A DNA stretch of 49,269 bases from a virus (taxonomy: Duplodnaviria; Caudoviricetes): the IMG/VR virus record IMGVR_UViG_3300044711_000117, positions 1-49,269 of that record; one strand, written 5' to 3'. Position numbers and translations under genes: made by a program. Shown here one piece after another: positions 5,951 through 23,465 of the stretch (its first letter is position 1; the number at the start of each line of letters is the position of its first letter). Under the pieces are notes generated by a model. The model made no database searches and was not told the origin of the DNA. It saw only the letters and a program-made list of their open reading frames with translations.

Positions 5951-6103
5951 CACCCGACCTTGGTGGCACTGGGTGACATTCTGATAGGAAAAGTAGATAT
6001 TCACCTAACTACTTGTCGTCCTTTGGCCGCCGGTCGTAGTCTTCACGGGCCTCACACATCTGGGCATCTGCTCGTCCGGATGATGGGATGAAGGGGGGGC
6101 ATC

Positions 6104-6385
6104 TTGCTGAACGTGAACTACGCCCTTGACGACAGGATCGACGCCGATCACGCCGTAGTGGTGGAAGAGTCGCGAGGCAGCGTCGAGGTGCGGCTGTCGC
6201 CTGAAGTGTTCTCGGATCAGGCCTGCGCCGCTCTCAATGCGGCTAGCCAGCAATTCCTGGCGGGTGGTCAGTGGTTCCAGCTCTGGCGCGGTGAGATCGT
6301 CTCCATGGAGTCCCCGGAAGACCCGCGTCAGGGAGGCACAGTTGCCCGGCTACATCGAGGACAGGTGGTACACGAAGCGTCCTGA
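6104..6385 (+). CDS. Hypothetical protein between repressor and integrase
   Basis: TTG start with GGGGG RBS; 3' end overlaps the int start. Confidence 0.65.
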   Translation: MLNVNYALDDRIDADHAVVVEESRGSVEVRLSPEVFSDQACAALNAASQQFLAGGQWFQLWRGEIVSMESPEDPRQGGTVARLHRGQVVHEAS

Positions 6386-7721
6386 TCCGGCAACGGGCAA
6401 GCGCCGCCAGACGGCGCGGTACGGCAAGGGCAAACGGTGGAGGGTTGCGGGCATCCCGGGCGTCCGCGACCGTTCCTTCACCCGCGAGGTGGACGCCAAG
6501 CGGTGGCTGGCCGACTCGCAGACCGATTCCAGCCGCGGCACGTTCTACGATCCCCGTGACGGTGAGATCTCTCTGCGCGAGTACGTGGAGCAGCACTGGT
6601 GGCCGACGCTGCGGAAGGCGCCAGGCACCAAGCAGTCGATGCAGTCGCGCGTCTTCAACCACATCCTCCCGCACGTCGGGCATCTGGCCCTGAACCGCAT
6701 CGGCCACGATGAGGTGCTGGCGTGGCAGGCCCGAGCCGAGCGGTCCATCGACGTCAGTACCCTCGTGGTGACCTGGCGGCACTTCTCCTCGATCATGCAG
6801 GCCGCACACAAGGCCAAAAGGGTCCCCGCGAACCCGTTCCGCGACGAGGACCTGAAGGCGCCCGCGGTCCCCAAGTCGAAGGCGAAGGCCTGGTCACCGG
6901 AGACAGTCATCGCGGTCCGCGAGGCACTGCCGCCGCGGTACCGGATCCTGCTGGATCTGGGTATCGGCGCGGGCCTTCGGCAGGGTGAGGCGTTCGGGTT
7001 CTCCCCGGACGACATCGACGGCGACGAGATCGCCGTGGTGCGCCAGGTGGTCGTCATCCGCTCGCGGCTAGCGTTCGCGCCGCCGAAGGGCAACAAGGAG
7101 CGGACGGCGCCATGCCCGCCAGCACTGGCCCGGGCGGTGAAGGAGTACGCCAACGCCTTCCCCACGGTCGAGGTGACGTTGCCGTGGGTGGATCCGGACA
7201 GGCCGAGCCTGGCGTGGGAGGACCGGCCGCTGAGGACGGTGCGGCTGCTGGTGACGACACCCCGTACAGGCGGGAAGAGCGGCGGCGCGGTGAACCGCAG
7301 CCACTTCGACGACAAGCACTGGAAGCCCGCCCTTGCCCGGGCCGGGGTGATCCCGGAGCCGGAGACGGAGGTCACGGGGCACCGGCCGGGTAAGGGACCG
7401 GTGCGCCGGGTGAAGTGGGCGATGCCGCGCGAGGAGGGCTTCCACGTCACGCGGCACACGTTCGCGTCGATCGTGCTGCAGGCCGGCGAGACGGTGACAC
7501 AGTTGGCCGCGTGGCTGGGGCATTCCGATCCGGCGTTCACGCTGCGGACTTACGTGCACTTCATGCCGAAGTCGGGGAGCAGGGGGCTGGCGGCTCTCGG
7601 CGAGTGGGTGGCTCCGGGTGGCGGTGCCGCGGTGGAGATCTCACCGGCTAACGGATCTCCCCAGATTCTCCCCAGCGCACGGTCATCCGGCGATTCTGAG
7701 GGTATCCTCGCAGGTCAATGA
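6342..7721 (+). CDS. int: Tyrosine integrase
   Basis: TTG start after GGAGG; N-terminal arm-binding and SAM-like regions; catalytic GLRQGE, PPKG, HVTRH, LGHS, RTY. Confidence 0.95.
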   Translation: MPGYIEDRWYTKRPDPATGKRRQTARYGKGKRWRVAGIPGVRDRSFTREVDAKRWLADSQTDSSRGTFYDPRDGEISLREYVEQHWWPTLRKAPGTKQSMQSRVFNHILPHVGHLALNRIGHDEVLAWQARAERSIDVSTLVVTWRHFSSIMQAAHKAKRVPANPFRDEDLKAPAVPKSKAKAWSPETVIAVREALPPRYRILLDLGIGAGLRQGEAFGFSPDDIDGDEIAVVRQVVVIRSRLAFAPPKGNKERTAPCPPALARAVKEYANAFPTVEVTLPWVDPDRPSLAWEDRPLRTVRLLVTTPRTGGKSGGAVNRSHFDDKHWKPALARAGVIPEPETEVTGHRPGKGPVRRVKWAMPREEGFHVTRHTFASIVLQAGETVTQLAAWLGHSDPAFTLRTYVHFMPKSGSRGLAALGEWVAPGGGAAVEISPANGSPQILPSARSSGDSEGILAGQ

Positions 7722-7933
7722 CGTGCGGGGCAGACGAGTCGGGCTGTACGCCGGGTTCTGTGCCCCGGGATTCCGTGGCCTGGACCGGAGCCGCCGACTG
7801 ATCTCAGGTGCCGTCTGACCTGCGTTCTCTCCCGTTCAGATGTTGGGTTGACGTGTTCCGAATGGGGGTGGATTCGGGAGTTTCGGGTTCTCCCCCACTG
7901 CTCCCCTCCCCAACCACTCCCCAGATTCTCCCC
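7657..7933. repeat. attP arm-type direct repeats CTCCCCAGATTCTCCCC (7657-7673, 7917-7933) and inverted CGCAGGTCA/TGACCTGCG (7709-7717, 7816-7824)
   Basis: Exact repeats seen flanking the core. Confidence 0.8.
7731..7761 (-). other. rnpB: attP core = 3' terminal fragment of RNase P RNA (ACAGAACCCGGCGTACAGCCCGACTCGTCTG)
   Basis: Contains the conserved ACAGAACCCGGC element of bacterial RNase P RNA followed by a P1-like 3' strand; rest of the gene absent; lies just after the int stop, between arm repeats. Confidence 0.8.
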
Positions 7934-8265: not shown

Positions 8266-8281
8266 TTGAACACATGTTCGA
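8266..8281. promoter_or_regulatory. LexA (SOS) box TTGAAC-ACAT-GTTCGA
   Basis: One mismatch to the actinobacterial consensus TCGAAC-N4-GTTCGA; adjacent TTGACA at 8284-8289. Confidence 0.75.
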
Positions 8282-9304: not shown

Positions 9305-10489
9305 TTACAGGCCGATCCAGGCGGCCATGCCGCTGAGCGTCTCCGGTGCGCGTCGGGCGGCGTGGACAAGGCCGCTGATGGTCTCCCGGGCGCCCGGGTG
9401 ATACCGGGTCTGCTCGGGCGCGGCGCGCCGGGCTTCGACCAGGCTGGCGAGCGCTGCCTCGGTTCGGCCGGTCTCCATCTCGGAGCGGGCCCGGTCCACG
9501 TAGAAGTGCGCGCGCCTCGAGGTGGCTAGGCTCGCCGGCAGGTCGATGTCCCGGGCCTGCCTGAGCGCGTGGGCGTAGTGCCGCATTTCCACGGCCGTGC
9601 TCATGCGGTGCAGCGAGACGTTGGCCGGTCCGAAGGACAGCCAGTGCACGTCGGAGGCGTCGCCGGTCTGCTCGGCGAGCCCGGCGGCCTCGGCAAGGTG
9701 GGTGTCGGCGAGGTCGGCGTCCCGTGCGCGCGCGGCGATGACCGAGGCACCGAGGTGGAGCTGCCCTGTGACGGCGGTGGTGGCCCGGCCGTGCTCGGCC
9801 TGCTGCAGGATGCCGTGCCCAGAGTCGATGAGGCGAAGTCCGATGCCGTTGTCGCCCTCCCGGAAGTAGTTCAAGGCGCGCATGTACTGGCGGACGGCGG
9901 CGAGCAGCGGGTCGGAGGCGCGAGCCGCCGCCCACTCCATGCGGTCCAAGGCGACCGAGGACAGGTCGAAGTAGCCCAGCTTCACAGCGATGTCGTGCGC
10001 GCTGCGGTACGCCGACCCGAGGGCCTGCCACAGCTCCGTCGTGGGAGCCGTCCAGGCTGCCGTGGTCAGCTCCGCGATCACCCCCGGCAGGGCCACGGCC
10101 GCGTTCCGTAGGCGGGTGGCGCGCACCAGTCGGCACAGGTCATCGGCTGCGGCCACCAGCAGCCCGGCCGGCCGCACCACGAGGTCCGGGTCGGGGCCGA
10201 GGTCGTACAAGTCCATGGCCTCGCGGATGGGCCGCACGAGTTCGGCGAGGCGGTCCTTCTGGAGTTCAGTCACGTAGGGCTGTCCCGTCAGCACGGTGAC
10301 GTCGACCCGCAGGGCCCGGGCCACCGCGGCGATGAAGTCCACGGACGCCGGCCTGGCGCCGCACTCCACCTGGTTGAGGAGGCTGTAGGAGAAGGGGATG
10401 CGCGCGGCCAGTTCGCGCTGGGTCAGCCTGGCCAGCCTTCGCTGCTCGCGGATGCGGGTACCCGTGTGGTCGTCGTCGTATCTGGGCAT
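9305..10489 (-). CDS. XRE-HTH transcriptional regulator with C-terminal helical (TPR-like) domain
   Basis: N-terminal IREQRRLARLTQRELA...SLLNQVECG; Ala/Leu-rich helical repeats, SFGPANV and APEQTRYHP motifs. Confidence 0.9.
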   Translation of the reverse strand: MPRYDDDHTGTRIREQRRLARLTQRELAARIPFSYSLLNQVECGARPASVDFIAAVARALRVDVTVLTGQPYVTELQKDRLAELVRPIREAMDLYDLGPDPDLVVRPAGLLVAAADDLCRLVRATRLRNAAVALPGVIAELTTAAWTAPTTELWQALGSAYRSAHDIAVKLGYFDLSSVALDRMEWAAARASDPLLAAVRQYMRALNYFREGDNGIGLRLIDSGHGILQQAEHGRATTAVTGQLHLGASVIAARARDADLADTHLAEAAGLAEQTGDASDVHWLSFGPANVSLHRMSTAVEMRHYAHALRQARDIDLPASLATSRRAHFYVDRARSEMETGRTEAALASLVEARRAAPEQTRYHPGARETISGLVHAARRAPETLSGMAAWIGL

Positions 10490-10601
10490 ACTGGTCTCCG
10501 TTCCTGACCCGACATCAGGGACGGTACCCGCGCCGCCTCCTCGCTGATCCCGGCTTGGGGGCGGTTGCGGCGCCCATGGTGGTCACGGTTGGGTGGCGGC
10601 C

Positions 10602-11138
10602 ATGACGCGCACCCTGTATCTGTTCGGCTCCGCCGCCCCGCCCGTGTTCGACATCGCGGGCGTCATCGAGTCCGCCCAAGGGGACGGCTGGGACGTGTGC
10701 CTGGGGTTGACGCCGACCGCGGCCCGCTGGCTCGGCGAGTCCCTCGACGGCCTCGCGGCGCTCACGGGGCATCCGGTGCGGTCGGAGTACAAGATGCCTG
10801 GAGAGCCCGACGTGTGGCCGCCGGCCGACGTCATCGCCGTGGCGCCGATGACCTTCAACATGACGAATCAGTGGGCGCTCGGCATCACGGACAAGTTCGT
10901 CGTGGGTGTCGTCGCCGAGGGGATCGGGAAGCGGATCCCGACCATCGCGATGCCGTGTGTGAACGCGGCCTACGTGCAGCACCCGGGGTTTGAGCGGTCC
11001 GTGGAGACGCTGCGCGGAGCCGGGGTGCGGGTGCTGTACGGCGAGGGCGGGTTCGTGCCCAACCCACCCGGCAGCGGGAAACCGTCCGGCTACCCGTGGC
11101 ACCTCGTGTTGGGCGCGGCGGCCGAGGCGCTCAGGTAG
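10602..11138 (+). CDS. HFCD-family flavoprotein (PPC-DC/EpiD fold, non-canonical)
   Basis: TPTAARW, ADVIAVAPMTFNMTNQWALGITD and PCVN motifs of the flavoprotein family. Confidence 0.85.
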   Translation: MTRTLYLFGSAAPPVFDIAGVIESAQGDGWDVCLGLTPTAARWLGESLDGLAALTGHPVRSEYKMPGEPDVWPPADVIAVAPMTFNMTNQWALGITDKFVVGVVAEGIGKRIPTIAMPCVNAAYVQHPGFERSVETLRGAGVRVLYGEGGFVPNPPGSGKPSGYPWHLVLGAAAEALR

Positions 11139-11418: not shown

Positions 11419-11448
11419 ACGGCCCGTCGTCTACGGACGGCGGGCCGT
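11419..11448 (+). terminator. Hairpin terminator
   Basis: ACGGCCCGTCGTC...GACGGCGGGCCGT stem. Confidence 0.65.
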
Positions 11449-11510
11449 TCGCATGTCGCATGCCCGGGCACGGGCGTCAACTTCCCCCGGAAAACGTGCT
11501 ATTACCAGCG

Positions 11511-11544
11511 GTAGCCACGTATAATTTCCCTTATACAAGGCTGC
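11511..11544. other. loxP-like 13-8-13 recombination site GTAGCCACGTATA-ATTTCCCT-TATACAAGGCTGC
   Basis: 10/13 inverted arms with loxP-type inner GTATA/TATAC, asymmetric 8-bp spacer, AT-rich island upstream of the Cre-like operon. Confidence 0.75.
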
Positions 11545-11560
11545 TTTCGAGGGAGGAAAC

Positions 11561-11890
11561 ATGGGCGCTGAGCCCGCCGGGCAGTGGACGCTCACCATCA
11601 CCTGCCCGCGCCCGAAGAACCGAGCTGTCGATGACTTCCACGTCCGGCCGGACAAGGTGACCCGCGTGGGTGTCGAGTGGTTCGGCGAGGGTGCCGAGTT
11701 GACGCTCACTGCCCGGACCGTTCGCCTGACTCAGACCACCGACGCTCCGGTGCGCGATCTGACCATGTGGCAGCAGAAGTTGGCGACCGTCCTGTACTGC
11801 CTGATGCTCGACACCCACACCAACGGTGGCGCCTACCGACTTCCGCGCCCCGTGCGCACCGAGGTTCACGAGAAGGAGCGGGTGGCGTGA
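11561..11890 (+). CDS. Hypothetical protein coupled to the recombinase
   Basis: Strong GGAGG RBS; GTGA overlap with the recombinase start. Confidence 0.75.
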   Translation: MGAEPAGQWTLTITCPRPKNRAVDDFHVRPDKVTRVGVEWFGEGAELTLTARTVRLTQTTDAPVRDLTMWQQKLATVLYCLMLDTHTNGGAYRLPRPVRTEVHEKERVA

Positions 11891-13044
11891 CCGAGCCTGA
11901 AGAGGTGATCGAGGCGGAACTCGTTGACGACCACAACCTGCCCGCCATGATCCAACCTCAGGCCGCTCCTCAGCCGCTCGTTGACCGGCACACGATCCTG
12001 CGCCCCAATGCGCCGATCCCCACCACCGCGGACCTCCCGATGTACACCGAGGCGGACTTCCGGATCTCCGAGGAGACCGCCGAACTCCTCGACGCGGCCC
12101 CGCCCGAGAACACCAGCCGCACTTACAACTCGGCACGCCAGCAGTTCCGGACGTGGTGCGCCGAGCAGGGTCGTGTGCCCATGCCCTGCACCACCGCCAC
12201 GTTCGTCGAGTACGTCGGCCACCTCATCCGGCAGGACAAGTCCCCGTCGACCATCCAGGTCGCCATGTCTGCGATCCGCTCCGCCCACCCGGACGGACAA
12301 CAGCCAGGCATGAAGGAGGCCCGCGAAGCCCTCCGTAAGCACGCCCGAGGCTGGGCGCAGCGCCGCACTCCCAGGAAGGCCACCGGTATCCGCTCCGACG
12401 CGCTCACCGCCCTCGTCGCCACCTGTAACGGGGGACGGCCCAAGGACATCCGGGACGCCGCTCTCCTCACTCTCGGCTGGGGCATGTTGTCGCGGCGGTC
12501 GGAACTGGCGAACCTTCTCATCGAGCATCTCGCCGTCGAGGACGACGGCGTCACCGTGCGCGTTGCCTTCTCCAAGACCGACCAGGCCGCTAAGGGCGCC
12601 GAGACCTTCGTGCCAGCGGCCCCCGAGGAGCCCGACGTCTGCCCCGTCATCCGCATTCGGGCCTGGCTCGAGGAGCTCCGCCGCCGCGGCATCACCAACG
12701 GGCCGCTGTTCCGCGCCATCACCCGCGGCGGCACCATCCCCGCCCGGGCCGGGGCACGTGGCGGCTTCATGACGCCGGACGCCATCGGCGCCATCGTCAA
12801 GCGCCGTGCCGCCCTCGCCGGCCTGCCCGATCCAACCCGGGTCACCGCACACGGACTACGCCGCGGCCCCGCGCAGGAGATCGCCGAGGCTGGAGAGGAT
12901 CCCACCGCGCAGGGCCGCTGGAAGCCCGGCTCCCTCACCGTCCGGCGGTACTACGTGGAGCCTGCGCAGGGCAAGGCCAACAACCCGCTACGAGCCGTCC
13001 GCCGCAAGCGAGCCGAGCAGCGCCAAGACGGTGCCCCCGCATAG
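11887..13044 (+). CDS. Cre-like tyrosine recombinase
   Basis: NTSRTY N-terminal SAM-like domain, RDAALL, SRRSEL, SKTDQ, HGLRRG, QGRW (Trp as in Cre), RRYY. Confidence 0.92.
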   Translation: MTEPEEVIEAELVDDHNLPAMIQPQAAPQPLVDRHTILRPNAPIPTTADLPMYTEADFRISEETAELLDAAPPENTSRTYNSARQQFRTWCAEQGRVPMPCTTATFVEYVGHLIRQDKSPSTIQVAMSAIRSAHPDGQQPGMKEAREALRKHARGWAQRRTPRKATGIRSDALTALVATCNGGRPKDIRDAALLTLGWGMLSRRSELANLLIEHLAVEDDGVTVRVAFSKTDQAAKGAETFVPAAPEEPDVCPVIRIRAWLEELRRRGITNGPLFRAITRGGTIPARAGARGGFMTPDAIGAIVKRRAALAGLPDPTRVTAHGLRRGPAQEIAEAGEDPTAQGRWKPGSLTVRRYYVEPAQGKANNPLRAVRRKRAEQRQDGAPA

Positions 13045-13051
13045 GCAAGCT

Positions 13052-13080
13052 GCCCCTGCCGCGCAGATCTCGGCAGGGGC
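13052..13080 (+). terminator. Hairpin terminator after the recombinase
   Basis: GCCCCTGCCG-N9-CGGCAGGGGC perfect 10-bp stem. Confidence 0.75.
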
Positions 13081-13451
13081 GGTGTCTCCGGGGGCCTCAC
13101 CGCGTGGCGGCGGATCCAGTTGCCTGGCTCCGGCTTGTCCCGGCAGACGGGGCCCGGCGGCTGCGCGAGTGTCGGTCTGAGCCGACGCCGCCGGGCGCAA
13201 GGCGCCTACATTGGTCGGCCACGTCAGCGCCCGCAGGCAGTCTGGCACGGATGTCCCGGGTGGGAGCCCACCCAGGACGCCAGAAGTTCAACTAACTGGC
13301 CACAAGGTTGAACATCGGGCCCGGATCTTCAACTTACGTTGATGGCGGGCGCAAGAAGACCCCCGCCCAGCGAGGGGCGGGGGTGGTTTGCGCGGGCCCC
13401 GTGGGCCTTGGCCGGGCGTTGCCCGGCGCGGGCCGCGAAGGGCGGAGAGGC

Positions 13452-13716: not shown

Positions 13717-14430
13717 CTACGCACGCACCGCTCGGATGAGTGTGGTCGCCATCGGCGGTTGCGTGTCCGTTCCTGGATCACGCAGGGCGTCGGTGGTCAG
13801 ATCGGTGAACCCTGCCTCAGCGAGGAGCTTCTCCCACACGGGCGTGTCCAGAACCCAGCGCCACATCGTGCTGCATGTGCCGTCGTCCAAGAGCACGGGG
13901 ATCGTGGCGGGCTGGACATCGCTCTCCGGGGGCTGGCCGCCCTTGTAGTGGGCGAGGGTCGACAGCAGGAAGGTGCCGCCGGGCCGCAGCGCGGTGGCAA
14001 CTGCTGGCAGCAGGGCGCGGGGGTCGGTGAAGTCACAGGCGCCGTAGTAGGAGTACGCCACGTCGAGGGAGCTCGGGGTGGCCTGCAGAGTGGTGACGGC
14101 ATCGGCGTGGATGAACTCCAGACCCGGGATATCGCCGAACAGGTCACGCCCTCGGGTGATCTGCGCGCTGGAGGTGTCGATGGCCAGGACCTGAGCCGCG
14201 CCGAGGACTTCGGCGACGTGAGCGGCCTGGCGGCCGGTGCCGGCCCCGAGGTCCGCGACAGTCCGGCTGGCGACATCGCCGAGGATCTCCGCGCCGGGCC
14301 CGAGGCGCTGGTACCAGTCCCAGTACAGGCGGCCTTCGGTGCCGCGGGCGCAGGCGTCGGCCGCGTGGATGCGGCCGTAGCGGGTCCAGGGATCGGCGGT
14401 GTCCGCCGTGGGAGAGGTCACCCGGCCCAT
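13717..14430 (-). CDS. Class I SAM-dependent methyltransferase
   Basis: VADLGAGTG motif I, LAIDTS, HADA, LRPGG. Confidence 0.9.
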   Translation of the reverse strand: MGRVTSPTADTADPWTRYGRIHAADACARGTEGRLYWDWYQRLGPGAEILGDVASRTVADLGAGTGRQAAHVAEVLGAAQVLAIDTSSAQITRGRDLFGDIPGLEFIHADAVTTLQATPSSLDVAYSYYGACDFTDPRALLPAVATALRPGGTFLLSTLAHYKGGQPPESDVQPATIPVLLDDGTCSTMWRWVLDTPVWEKLLAEAGFTDLTTDALRDPGTDTQPPMATTLIRAVRA

Positions 14431-14486
14431 CCTGTCGAGCCGCCGGCGCCCGCGTGGCCGACTCCGCGGAATGCACCTGAATGGGG

Positions 14487-14517
14487 GCGGCCCCCGCCCG
14501 AGATGGACGGGGGCCGC
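14487..14517 (-). terminator. Hairpin between the DUF1399-like gene and the methyltransferase
   Basis: GCGGCCCCCG...CGGGGGCCGC 10-bp stem. Confidence 0.6.
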
Positions 14518-14531
14518 AGGGGGCGGGTTGG

Positions 14532-15005
14532 TCAGTGGCCGTCCTCGCCGGGCCGGCACGGGGTGCAGTTAGTGCTGTCGGCCTCCCACAGCGGCCAGTC
14601 CACGGTGAAGCCGTGCCGGGCGAGCTGCTCGGCGGTCCTGGCCACGGACCCGTCCACCTTCATGGCGACGTCGGGCACGTGATGCAGGAAGTGGCCGTCG
14701 TTGTACTCCTGGCAGAACGCGGCGTACTCGACCGTGTCCAGGATCATGGTGTGCACACCGATGTCCACGATGGAGCCGGGGCCCAGGCCCAGACCCTGAC
14801 CGCGGCACTCCATCGCGGTGATCAGGTATGCGATGCCCTGGCCGAGGACACGCTCGGCCATCACGGTGTCGAAGGGGTAGTCCCGCATCAGCAGTCCGAC
14901 GAGCTTGGTCCACTGGTCGCGGGCGATGAAGGTACGCGGGTCACGGGCCGGCGCGAGCGGACCGGCCACGGCCGTATTGGTGGGACTTTCCAGGATCGCG
15001 GTCAC
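14532..15005 (-). CDS. DUF1399/GRDP-like protein with C-terminal CxxC tail
   Basis: PGSIVDIGVHTMILDT.EYAAFC...FLHHVP signature; ends NCTPCRPGEDGH; GGGAG RBS. Confidence 0.75.
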   Translation of the reverse strand: MTAILESPTNTAVAGPLAPARDPRTFIARDQWTKLVGLLMRDYPFDTVMAERVLGQGIAYLITAMECRGQGLGLGPGSIVDIGVHTMILDTVEYAAFCQEYNDGHFLHHVPDVAMKVDGSVARTAEQLARHGFTVDWPLWEADSTNCTPCRPGEDGH

Positions 15006-15190
15006 CAGGTGCTCCCTTCACGGGTCCCCGAGGGCTCGGGGCGCTGAGTCGAGTACGCCACCAACCCAGCAGGCGCGGTGATCAACTGCCGTGCCGTGCA
15101 CGGCGTTTGCAGATCCTGCACACGGCATCGACGGACCGCGCGGGCGCTACTACCGTCGGTAGACCGGCCCTTCGGCCCCGTGGAGACGCG

Positions 15191-16465
15191 ATGCGCGACG
15201 TCGATCCGCTGTGGAGCAGCTTGCAGGCCCGCGACTACATGGGCCGCCATCAGCCGGGCAGTCTCGTGCGCTTGGGCCGTCAGCGCCTCGGCTGGCGTCA
15301 GGCCGAGTTGGGGAGCCGAATCGGCTGCTCCGCTTCCACGGTATCGCGCCTGGAGACTGGCCCGGCAGGGGACCTGCGGTTACTCCAGCGGGCCGCCCAC
15401 GAGGTCGGCGTGCCAGACGTCGTTCTCGGTGCGGCACTCGGTCTGTCCGGCCCAGGCACCACTACAGTGGCGGCCAGTCGCCCGGAGGAGGACCCCATGC
15501 GCCGCCGCACGCTGCTCACCGCCACTGCGGTCGCCGGGCCCGCCGCTCTCCTGGCAGGCGTCGATGACGCCCTCGCCGCGACCCCGGCCCCGACCACGGC
15601 GGCCGGCCCGCTGGACGCTCGTTTGGCTGCCGCGCGCTCCCTGTACGACACCGGCGCCCATCGCCGGCTGCTGGCCGACCTGCCTGGTCTGATCGCCGAT
15701 GCGCACGCCGCGGTCACGACCCGTGCGCCGATGGACCAGGCCCGGCTGTCGGCCGTGTACAGCCTCGCCACCGCCGTGCTAAGCAAGCTCGGCTCGTACC
15801 AGCGGGCGCGACTGACCGCCGACCGGGCCCGCACGTGGGCCGAGGTCTCCGGCTCCCCACTCGCATCGGCCGCAGCGGCCCGCGAGTTGGCGATCGTGCT
15901 ACGCCATCAGGACCAGGGCGACGCCGCCCAACGTCTCATCGCCGCTGCCGCTGCCGATGTGGAGACCACCGGGCTACGCACAGACGCAGCCGCCTCGGCG
16001 TATGCGCAACTGCTGTGCACCACGGCGTACACCGCGGCGCAGTCCGGGAACCGCGGCGAGGCCCAGGCGATGATCCAGGATGCCGTGGCGGCGGCGCGGC
16101 GCCTGCCGTCCCAGCCACCGGCGGGGCGTCTGTTTCCGATCACGCCGGCTGCGGTCGACGCCTATGCGGTCAGCGTCCACTGGGCGCTCGGCGACTCGGG
16201 TACGGCGCTGGCCATCGGCAGCCGCCTGCCGCCCCAGCAGCTTGCCACGGCCGAGCGACGTGGGCGCTTCCACACGGACATGGCCCGCGCGTGGTGGCAG
16301 TGGGGTCGGCCGGCGCAGACCGCCGCTGCGCTGCTGGACGCCGCTCGCGTGTCGCCGTCCGAGGTGCGTGACCGGCCAGCGATCCGGCGGATCGTCACCG
16401 ACCTCCGTCGCTGTCATCCGCATACCGTGGGTGTGCGCGAGCTGGTTGCTACTGCCGGGGTGTGA
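15191..16465 (+). CDS. XRE-HTH regulator with C-terminal helical (TPR-like) domain; contains a TTA codon
   Basis: RQRLGWRQAELGSRIGCSASTVSRLETG HTH; internal MRRRTLL linker; ERRGRFHTDMARAWWQWG; GGAG RBS. Confidence 0.9.
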   Translation: MRDVDPLWSSLQARDYMGRHQPGSLVRLGRQRLGWRQAELGSRIGCSASTVSRLETGPAGDLRLLQRAAHEVGVPDVVLGAALGLSGPGTTTVAASRPEEDPMRRRTLLTATAVAGPAALLAGVDDALAATPAPTTAAGPLDARLAAARSLYDTGAHRRLLADLPGLIADAHAAVTTRAPMDQARLSAVYSLATAVLSKLGSYQRARLTADRARTWAEVSGSPLASAAAARELAIVLRHQDQGDAAQRLIAAAAADVETTGLRTDAAASAYAQLLCTTAYTAAQSGNRGEAQAMIQDAVAAARRLPSQPPAGRLFPITPAAVDAYAVSVHWALGDSGTALAIGSRLPPQQLATAERRGRFHTDMARAWWQWGRPAQTAAALLDAARVSPSEVRDRPAIRRIVTDLRRCHPHTVGVRELVATAGV

Positions 16466-23012: not shown

Positions 23013-23465
23013 TCAGTCCTCGCGATCTACTAACGCACCGAAGAAGTCCGCGATCTCCTCGACGCGCAGAACCTCCGTGGAACGCCCCAGGTCCGGTACG
23101 CCGGCACGCCTGCGGGCGTCCAGCCACGGCCCGGGCTGATGACTCATCTCCGACAACTCGTGCGCCGTGAACCCTCCCAAGCCGTCCAGAACCAGGTCAA
23201 CCGACTCGGCCTCTCCCGCGTCCAGAGCTTCCGGATCGCCGACGATGTCGCTGCGGTCGAGCTGGAACCGCCCGCGGTGCTTGTCATACAGCGCCGGTGC
23301 CACGGGGCCGTTCGCCCACGCCTGGAACGGCTCCGGGAAGAGCTGCCGGTCCTCCCATGCAAGGTGGTAGCCGTAGGAGAAGTAGCAGAGCTTTTGAAGC
23401 TTCATGGCGGACATCGGGGCGGCTTTCGCCAGGATGTACGCCGCTACGTCATGAACGGTGGCCAT
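23013..23465 (-). CDS. Panacea/DUF4065 (SocA/GepA-like) antitoxin
   Basis: MKLQKLCYF, FQAWANGPV, LSEMSH..GPW motifs. Confidence 0.9.
   Translation of the reverse strand: MATVHDVAAYILAKAAPMSAMKLQKLCYFSYGYHLAWEDRQLFPEPFQAWANGPVAPALYDKHRGRFQLDRSDIVGDPEALDAGEAESVDLVLDGLGGFTAHELSEMSHQPGPWLDARRRAGVPDLGRSTEVLRVEEIADFFGALVDRED

Follow-up and report, generated by a model that had tools for sequence, protein, structure and literature searches.

The closest characterised system to the locus described here, as judged from sequence comparison, is MrpA with its site mrpS on plasmid SCP2. In 2011 work by Warth, Haug and Altenbuchner, MrpA (Streptomyces coelicolor SCP2*) reportedly worked without an accessory factor and used Y354. 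It integrates as well as resolves, Cre does both on P1, and the inner arms of loxP are CGTATA and TATACG. MrpA is described as a resolver of plasmid multimers (PMC3218068), and in E. coli it turns plasmids that carry mrpS into multimers (PMC4685060); the mrpS oligonucleotide in the supplement of PMC4685060 maps just ahead of the mrpA ribosome binding site (RBS) in SCP2. For Cre, approximately 84% of matched spacers are given as working (PMC11260471). Cre-type Y-SSR/target pairs were mined by Jelicic et al. 2023, with 8 of 17 tested pairs active (PMC10250229), and those pairs follow the same logic as the present one, a palindrome near the recombinase gene.

The window, meaning the whole stretch of DNA analysed, was identical to one virus record (49,269 nt, linear, approximately 74% complete). 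On its plus strand, a 34-bp lox/mrpS-like site with a 13-8-13 layout was located at 11511..11544 (GTAGCCACGTATA-ATTTCCCT-TATACAAGGCTGC); the inverted arms match at 10/13 positions and enclose an asymmetric 8-bp spacer, the inner 5 bp are perfect, and sequence and conservation mark it as the likely crossover site. The ATG of a 109-aa ORF (11561..11890, plus strand) follows after 16 bp with a GGAGG RBS present, and the end of this ORF overlaps (GTGA) the GTG start of a 385-aa Cre/MrpA-like tyrosine recombinase (11887..13044, plus strand). Symmetry alone was rejected as proof of the site, as 27 positions of the window (69% GC) reach at least 10/13 with an 8-bp spacer; the core of the site tied for the most AT-rich among those palindromes. 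GTATA-N8-TATAC occurred exactly once in the window versus 0 in 100 shuffles, and with 2 mismatches allowed there was still only this match, versus 0.79 expected. The significance of the site was taken from its conservation, not its symmetry. The first-pass annotation had found only one such site in the window, which held with 2 mismatches allowed, and no C, D, E or mrpS motif was found there either.

Within the site, TATAAT (11520-11525, plus strand) is the likely -10 element. The site was compared across 42 distinct site contexts (viral contigs plus genome and metagenome matches), and the window site falls within the range of variation of the family. A phage-type left flank (11478..11510, plus strand; CAACT ... 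TTACC-N3 abutting the left arm) was present in 18/42 contexts. A short inverted box, TTACC-N3-GGTAG (11502-11516), abuts the left arm and was seen in 18/42 contexts, and a box GTTAC-N5/6-GTA abuts it in 3/3 loci of the Gilgamesh-like group B (L062, L063, L065); from its sequence, the inverted box is possibly a host regulator site. Two GC-rich, terminator-like hairpins without a U tail were found on the plus strand, upstream of the operon (11419..11448, z -5.1) and after the recombinase stop (13049..13083, z -2.5).

R203, E206, K230, H322, R325, W345 and Y356 of the recombinase were invariant across 47 aligned homologues, and the motif QGRW includes W345, a Trp in place of the second catalytic His. 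Pfam matched PF00589 (Phage_integrase) and weakly PF02899 (SAM-like) only, with no arm-binding domain found. An N-terminal extension of approximately 60 aa was conserved and partly common to MrpA, with low confidence in the model. The best PDB sequence matches were Tre/Cre almost throughout, but weak (E 0.005-0.08). With the AlphaFold model (pLDDT 81), the top Foldseek matches were all Cre complexes (E 2e-10, TM ~0.54) and the first Xer match followed at E 8e-6; a Cre fold is predicted from this model. Identity as XerC or XerD was rejected, with 39.6 and 37.6 bits versus curated cut-offs of 335 and 330, and Trp345 where His is expected. Among 8000 scored candidates, 251 homologues were identified, the named ones from Streptomyces and close relatives. 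The median dN/dS of phage-borne copies was 0.23 (10 pairs) and 0.26 (28 pairs), similar to the plasmid-type groups (0.27 and 0.16), and these ratios indicate that the phage-borne copies are under purifying selection.

These results uphold much of the first-pass annotation, which had described a lox-like 13-8-13 site with 10/13 arms 16 bp before an operon ending in a tyrosine recombinase, the Trp in place of the second His, and the lack of an arm-binding domain, to which the conserved N-terminal extension must be added. Its view of a Cre-type recombinase/site pair separate from the phage integrase is likewise backed by the catalytic set, the predicted fold and the conservation of the site. It had also bounded the operon by terminators: the hairpins are present on both sides, but they lack U-tails and neither was called as a terminator, so they stand as putative terminators.

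The recombinase is homologous to MrpA over its full length (28% identity over 394 columns, E 4e-28). Both carry Trp for the second His, N-terminal V-x-EAELVDD and C-terminal N-x-PL motifs are shared, and Y354 of MrpA aligns next to Y355/Y356 of the window protein. The order of palindrome with 8-bp spacer, RBS and ATG of the operon is also the same in mrpS/mrpA. The two sites are identical at 16/34 bases (left arm 6/13, right arm 5/13, spacer 5/8). The window recombinase differs from MrpA in belonging to a separate tree clade and in an N-terminus approximately 28 residues longer, and, unlike MrpA/mrpS on plasmid SCP2, the window module has a passenger ORF between site and gene and an integrating phage as carrier. 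Recombinases of the pZL12.36c-like and Gilgamesh gp32-like kinds (29% and 36% identical to that of the window) have the same operon layout with lox-like sites of their own, differing in arms and spacers.

Cre and the window recombinase share the 13-8-13 site and the predicted fold, neither has an arm-binding domain, and identity in structural alignment was 16-18%. The inner bases of the window arms match those of loxP at 6/6 (left) and 5/6 (right), so on sequence grounds Cre may cross-react with this site, and the orthogonality of the pair to Cre appears doubtful. P1 is a plasmid prophage, whereas the window phage has an integrase and attP, and no host loxB-like site was found. Cre residues R173, K201, H289, R292, W315 and Y324 correspond to window R203, K230, H322, R325, W345 and Y356 (Cre numbering from PMC10250229). 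Neither Streptomyces nor the spacer ATTTCCCT occurs in one supplement file of PMC10250229, the table of approximately 500 pairs possibly lying elsewhere, and a literature search with subscription journals mostly outside its coverage returned no paper on this specificity group or on stacked sites. By sequence, the pair is a new specificity group of the known MrpA/Cre kind and not MrpA itself; the first-pass proposal of a new recombinase/target pair thus gives way to a place beside MrpA/mrpS of SCP2.

Upstream alignment of protein-found loci (at least 46% identity) recovered the palindromic site in 17/19, and the other 2 have 5'-truncated genes. An exact scan for the 17-bp core matched 29 viral contigs, in which 13/13 GC-rich matches adjoin a homologue versus 0/16 AT-rich ones. 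The recombinase gene lies 35-2059 nt downstream in 39/42 contexts, and the remaining 3 contigs end within 63-498 nt. Outer arm positions were paired at 212/336 versus 187+-6 in shuffles (reached in 0/5000), an excess that relatedness inflates; 3 sites are perfect 13/13 palindromes with differing outer arms, and arms have decayed to 6-8/13 in 9/42. The spacer ATTTCCCT was present in 37/42 sites, and in 12/16 of the contexts recovered through the protein and not through the pattern, among enzymes that are only 46-80% identical. TATAAT lies inside 38/42 sites and is missing in 4/42, with no conserved -35 element seen across the site contexts. Each protein clade has its own site (the group of at least 45% identity, the Gilgamesh-like group and the MrpA-like group), and one site per genome was found in the Streptomyces genomes searched. 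Integron-like cassette capture was rejected on that ground and for want of a second window site. Homologues also occur on the circular plasmids pFP11 and pSP01 (adjoining ParA in the latter), on a phage-plasmid with ParAB and on 2 records listed as linear plasmids. Taken together, the comparisons indicate a genuine Cre-type pair in which the site travels with the enzyme.

The 109-aa ORF belongs to a small phage family and is not a conserved part of the module. The first-pass annotation had counted it as one, but no homologue was found in 161 related loci. A total of 25 homologues exist; the 2 whose neighbourhoods were seen are surrounded by other phage genes, and neither a recombinase nor a site accompanies them. 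No Pfam, PHROG or NCBIfam match was obtained, and its model (pLDDT 83) had no fold match at E<=0.001; the ORF was rejected as a directionality or accessory factor on the lack of a domain or fold match and its absence from those 161 loci. The 33 ORFs between site and gene in the family form 26 clusters, a few overlapping calls among them being probably spurious. The gene lies within 83 nt of the site with no ORF between in 9 contexts, which fits independence of the recombinase from the small ORF. On these comparisons, the 109-aa ORF is best described as interchangeable cargo in the operon.

The phage is of Streptomyces type. Terminase, portal, prohead protease, capsid and tape measure genes were found in the window by Pfam, with a lysin-like gene on the minus strand. 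The region from 4.7 to 7.7 kb contains an excisionase-like gene, a repressor and a separate tyrosine integrase, Int (6237..7721, plus strand). Positions 7729..7768, directly after Int, were matched in 5/5 Streptomyces genomes searched, and 5/6 of the scanned loci place the match at the end of the gene for RNase P RNA. The window has no full copy of this gene, so the segment, which duplicates the host gene's 3' end, is likely the core of an intact attP; the phage thus has an integration system of its own, 3.7 kb from the recombinase module. Such a target of integration would be unusual, and the literature search found no paper on rnpB-integrating Streptomyces phages (subscription journals again mostly outside coverage). 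tRNA and Rfam scans of the window gave no matches. Second copies of the attP-core match were seen 23 and 14 kb from the gene in genomes G001 and G222, as expected of integrated islands.

Several further features of the window were recorded. A palindrome GAAC-N4-GTTC at 8266-8281, upstream of a small minus-strand ORF, resembles a LexA box, and an imperfect AT-rich palindrome between repressor and Int (5986-6019) is a possible operator. Accessory blocks flank the module at 9305-11138 (a long XRE regulator and a divergent flavoprotein gene) and at 13717-16465 (a methyltransferase pair and another long XRE regulator). A SocA/Panacea-domain antitoxin-like gene lies at 23013-23465, and its G412 and G415 copies are 71% identical. 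In related phages, Ro/TROVE-type RNA-binding genes (L114, L118, L121, L184, L192, L205, L208, L215) and Ku genes (L091, L114) recur a few kb from recombinase modules. Contigs of the sequencing run that is the likely source span the window without differences, with the listed joints not at the site, and are uninformative on circularity or expression.

A second lox-like site (type C, spacer ACATGCCA) lies intact approximately 110 bp upstream in 8/42 contexts and is absent from the window. Type C was found in 63 viral contigs (L162-L224, position 3001), followed within 3 kb by a pZL12.36c-like recombinase in 45, the window-type module in 6, an Xer-like recombinase in 5 and none in 7. The Xer-like recombinases (L172, L183, L195 and L202, approximately 100 bp after the site, and L176) match NCBIfam XerC/D at E 1e-32, below cut-off, with their own dif-like palindrome in four loci. 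The long upstream ORF present in 36 type-C contigs encodes an endolysin in 18 and a tail or virion protein in 6, and 15/26 such records searched also carry a phage integrase. The tallies indicate that, in temperate Streptomyces phages, a single slot is occupied time and again by simple recombinases of different kinds. The window module lies near attP, facing late genes and not directly behind lysis genes, and is therefore outside the usual lysis-gene slot. Many type-C sites are followed by a TACAAT hexamer that closely precedes an ATG, an arrangement suggestive of a leaderless promoter. Upstream of the site in L001, L057, L070, L077 and L079, additional relic motifs were seen whose spacer is mrpS-like, and a recurring GATAAGCTCAC motif in 5/42 contexts; the third relic motif gave 0 matches in an exact scan of viral contigs.

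On balance, the recombinase is taken to be a multimer resolvase of the MrpA kind which uses the 34-bp palindrome as its own crossover site and splits dimers of circular phage DNA (probability roughly 0.6); it is probably accessory-free and autoregulated. Dimer resolution had been among the first-pass suggestions, and resolution of multimers is, by likeness to MrpA/mrpS, the most likely role. One recombinase monomer would bind each 13-bp arm, and a tetramer would synapse two directly repeated sites on a dimer. Y356 would then cleave, and the strands would exchange across the matching 8-bp spacer by way of a Holliday junction, giving monomers. The reaction would need no accessory protein, and the 109-aa ORF would ride in the operon as a passenger. 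Binding of the recombinase would also repress the operon promoter, likely through the -10 TATAAT within the site. The module presumably came from a pool of Streptomyces plasmids and phage-plasmids, and an integrating phage would likely keep it for monomeric excised or pre-integration circles. Against this reading, dimer resolution is an obvious use for a plasmid, but not for a phage with its own Int, nor is it an obvious need on the linear-plasmid records carrying the two homologues; pure self-resolution needs no conserved spacer, yet ATTTCCCT recurs in 37/42 sites. The missing TATAAT in 4/42 sites and the lack of a conserved -35 tell against the promoter part.

The first-pass annotation had also offered an alternative integration route, circularisation and a plasmid-like phase. 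Integration at a host loxB-like target, or circularisation of the incoming phage genome as in P1, draws on the capacity of MrpA and Cre to integrate as well as to resolve, and is the least probable of the readings weighed, a very unlikely one. No core match at <=1 mismatch was found in 390/401 Streptomyces genomes; the other 11 gave 12 matches, 11 of which adjoin a recombinase, the twelfth being on a 31%-GC contig, and 0/401 carry two genuine sites, so the second site suggested for host or phage was found neither there nor in the window. In integrated relatives the site is internal to the prophage with a separate integrase at the far end (75 kb from the module in G005), which, with the attP assigned to Int (6237-7721), also led to rejection of a phage-integrase attP/attB role for the 34-bp site. 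A tblastn search, which covered the records up to the last 0.7-1.6 kb of three of them, found a separate integrase in 4/13 viral records (a tyrosine integrase in G408, G410 and G412; G415 via host genome G005) and none in 9/13, several of them fragments or end-cut and one, G416, with ParA; a serine integrase was found in 0/14 and 0/26 viral records, and no convincing direct repeats bounded the relatives' prophages. One prophage (G222:C4:5148225-5149500, L054) carries a serine recombinase, and its module looks decayed, the recombinase being split in two frames and the left arm shifted one base. Circularisation is further disfavoured by a single site approximately 35 kb from the terminase genes, and a plasmid-like phase is not supported, ParA not having been found in the 74%-complete record. 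Only slightly less improbable is that the site serves mainly as operator and promoter of a moron operon, the recombinase being kept as autoregulator with little recombination in the phage: the frequent internal TATAAT, the arms decayed in 9/42 sites and the constant position of the site at the operon head, ahead of 0-4 variable genes, would suit this, but no residue of the full catalytic set varies, phage-borne copies show dN/dS values as low as those of plasmid-borne ones, and the architecture matches MrpA, an enzyme shown to recombine.

A stronger, though still unlikely, competitor to the resolvase reading has the same chemistry acting mainly between elements, the shared spacer letting phages, plasmids and phage-plasmids fuse or swap arms to give cointegrates and mosaic genomes. 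It would account for one spacer across enzymes 46-80% identical and for the intact orphan second-type sites upstream in 8/42 contexts. The 50-nt bin starting at the site holds 14/58 of the left ends of shared blocks, but many of these 14 trace to two clusters of closely related loci, and the starts lie at site positions -3 to 9, outside the spacer. Loci L006 and L008 are 95% alike right of the site and at background (58%) to its left, and for each the left flank recurs in another locus (71% and 83%); however, left arms do not track left flanks in L006, L007, L008 and L048, and L003 and L017 have their first cargo gene in common but recombinases of different clades, which places that switch downstream of the site. 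At the second site type, L174 and L182 show 99.7% identity over 3 kb and part 8 nt inside the right arm, but the site marks the beginning or end of only 4 pairs, and in one the end lies past the promoter instead. Two well-supported recombinase clades (~50% identical) share one phage-type left flank (70-77% identity in 11/12 pairs between relatives and 59% in one, background 44-59%), to which the left flank of the window is only 54-66% alike. The lack of any genome with two genuine sites weighs against exchange, and site selection with ordinary phage mosaicism would look similar. The evidence for crossover at the spacer itself is thus mixed, while the near-invariant spacer and three modules behind one shared site hint, from sequence, at exchange between elements. 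Equally tentative is the idea that temperate Streptomyces phages keep, behind their lysis genes, a swappable 'resolvase slot' in which at least three modules, of the window, pZL12-like and Xer-like types, would replace one another with intact older sites left stacked upstream. One-spacer sites would then act as docking points for fusion and arm exchange among phages, plasmids and phage-plasmids, an engine of site-specific mosaicism and not a private dimer resolvase.

Under the preferred multimer-resolvase reading, the find is sound but fairly ordinary, a conserved pair on dozens of plasmids and phages. It provides a defined candidate group of recombinases and sites for use in high-GC hosts, in which specificity could be mapped with 42 natural site variants and two enzyme clades. 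It also indicates that a second, simple recombinase, maintained by purifying selection, is common in Streptomyces phages that integrate. Should exchange between elements be what the shared spacer reflects, a testable route would follow to phage-plasmids and to mosaic phage genomes in Streptomyces.
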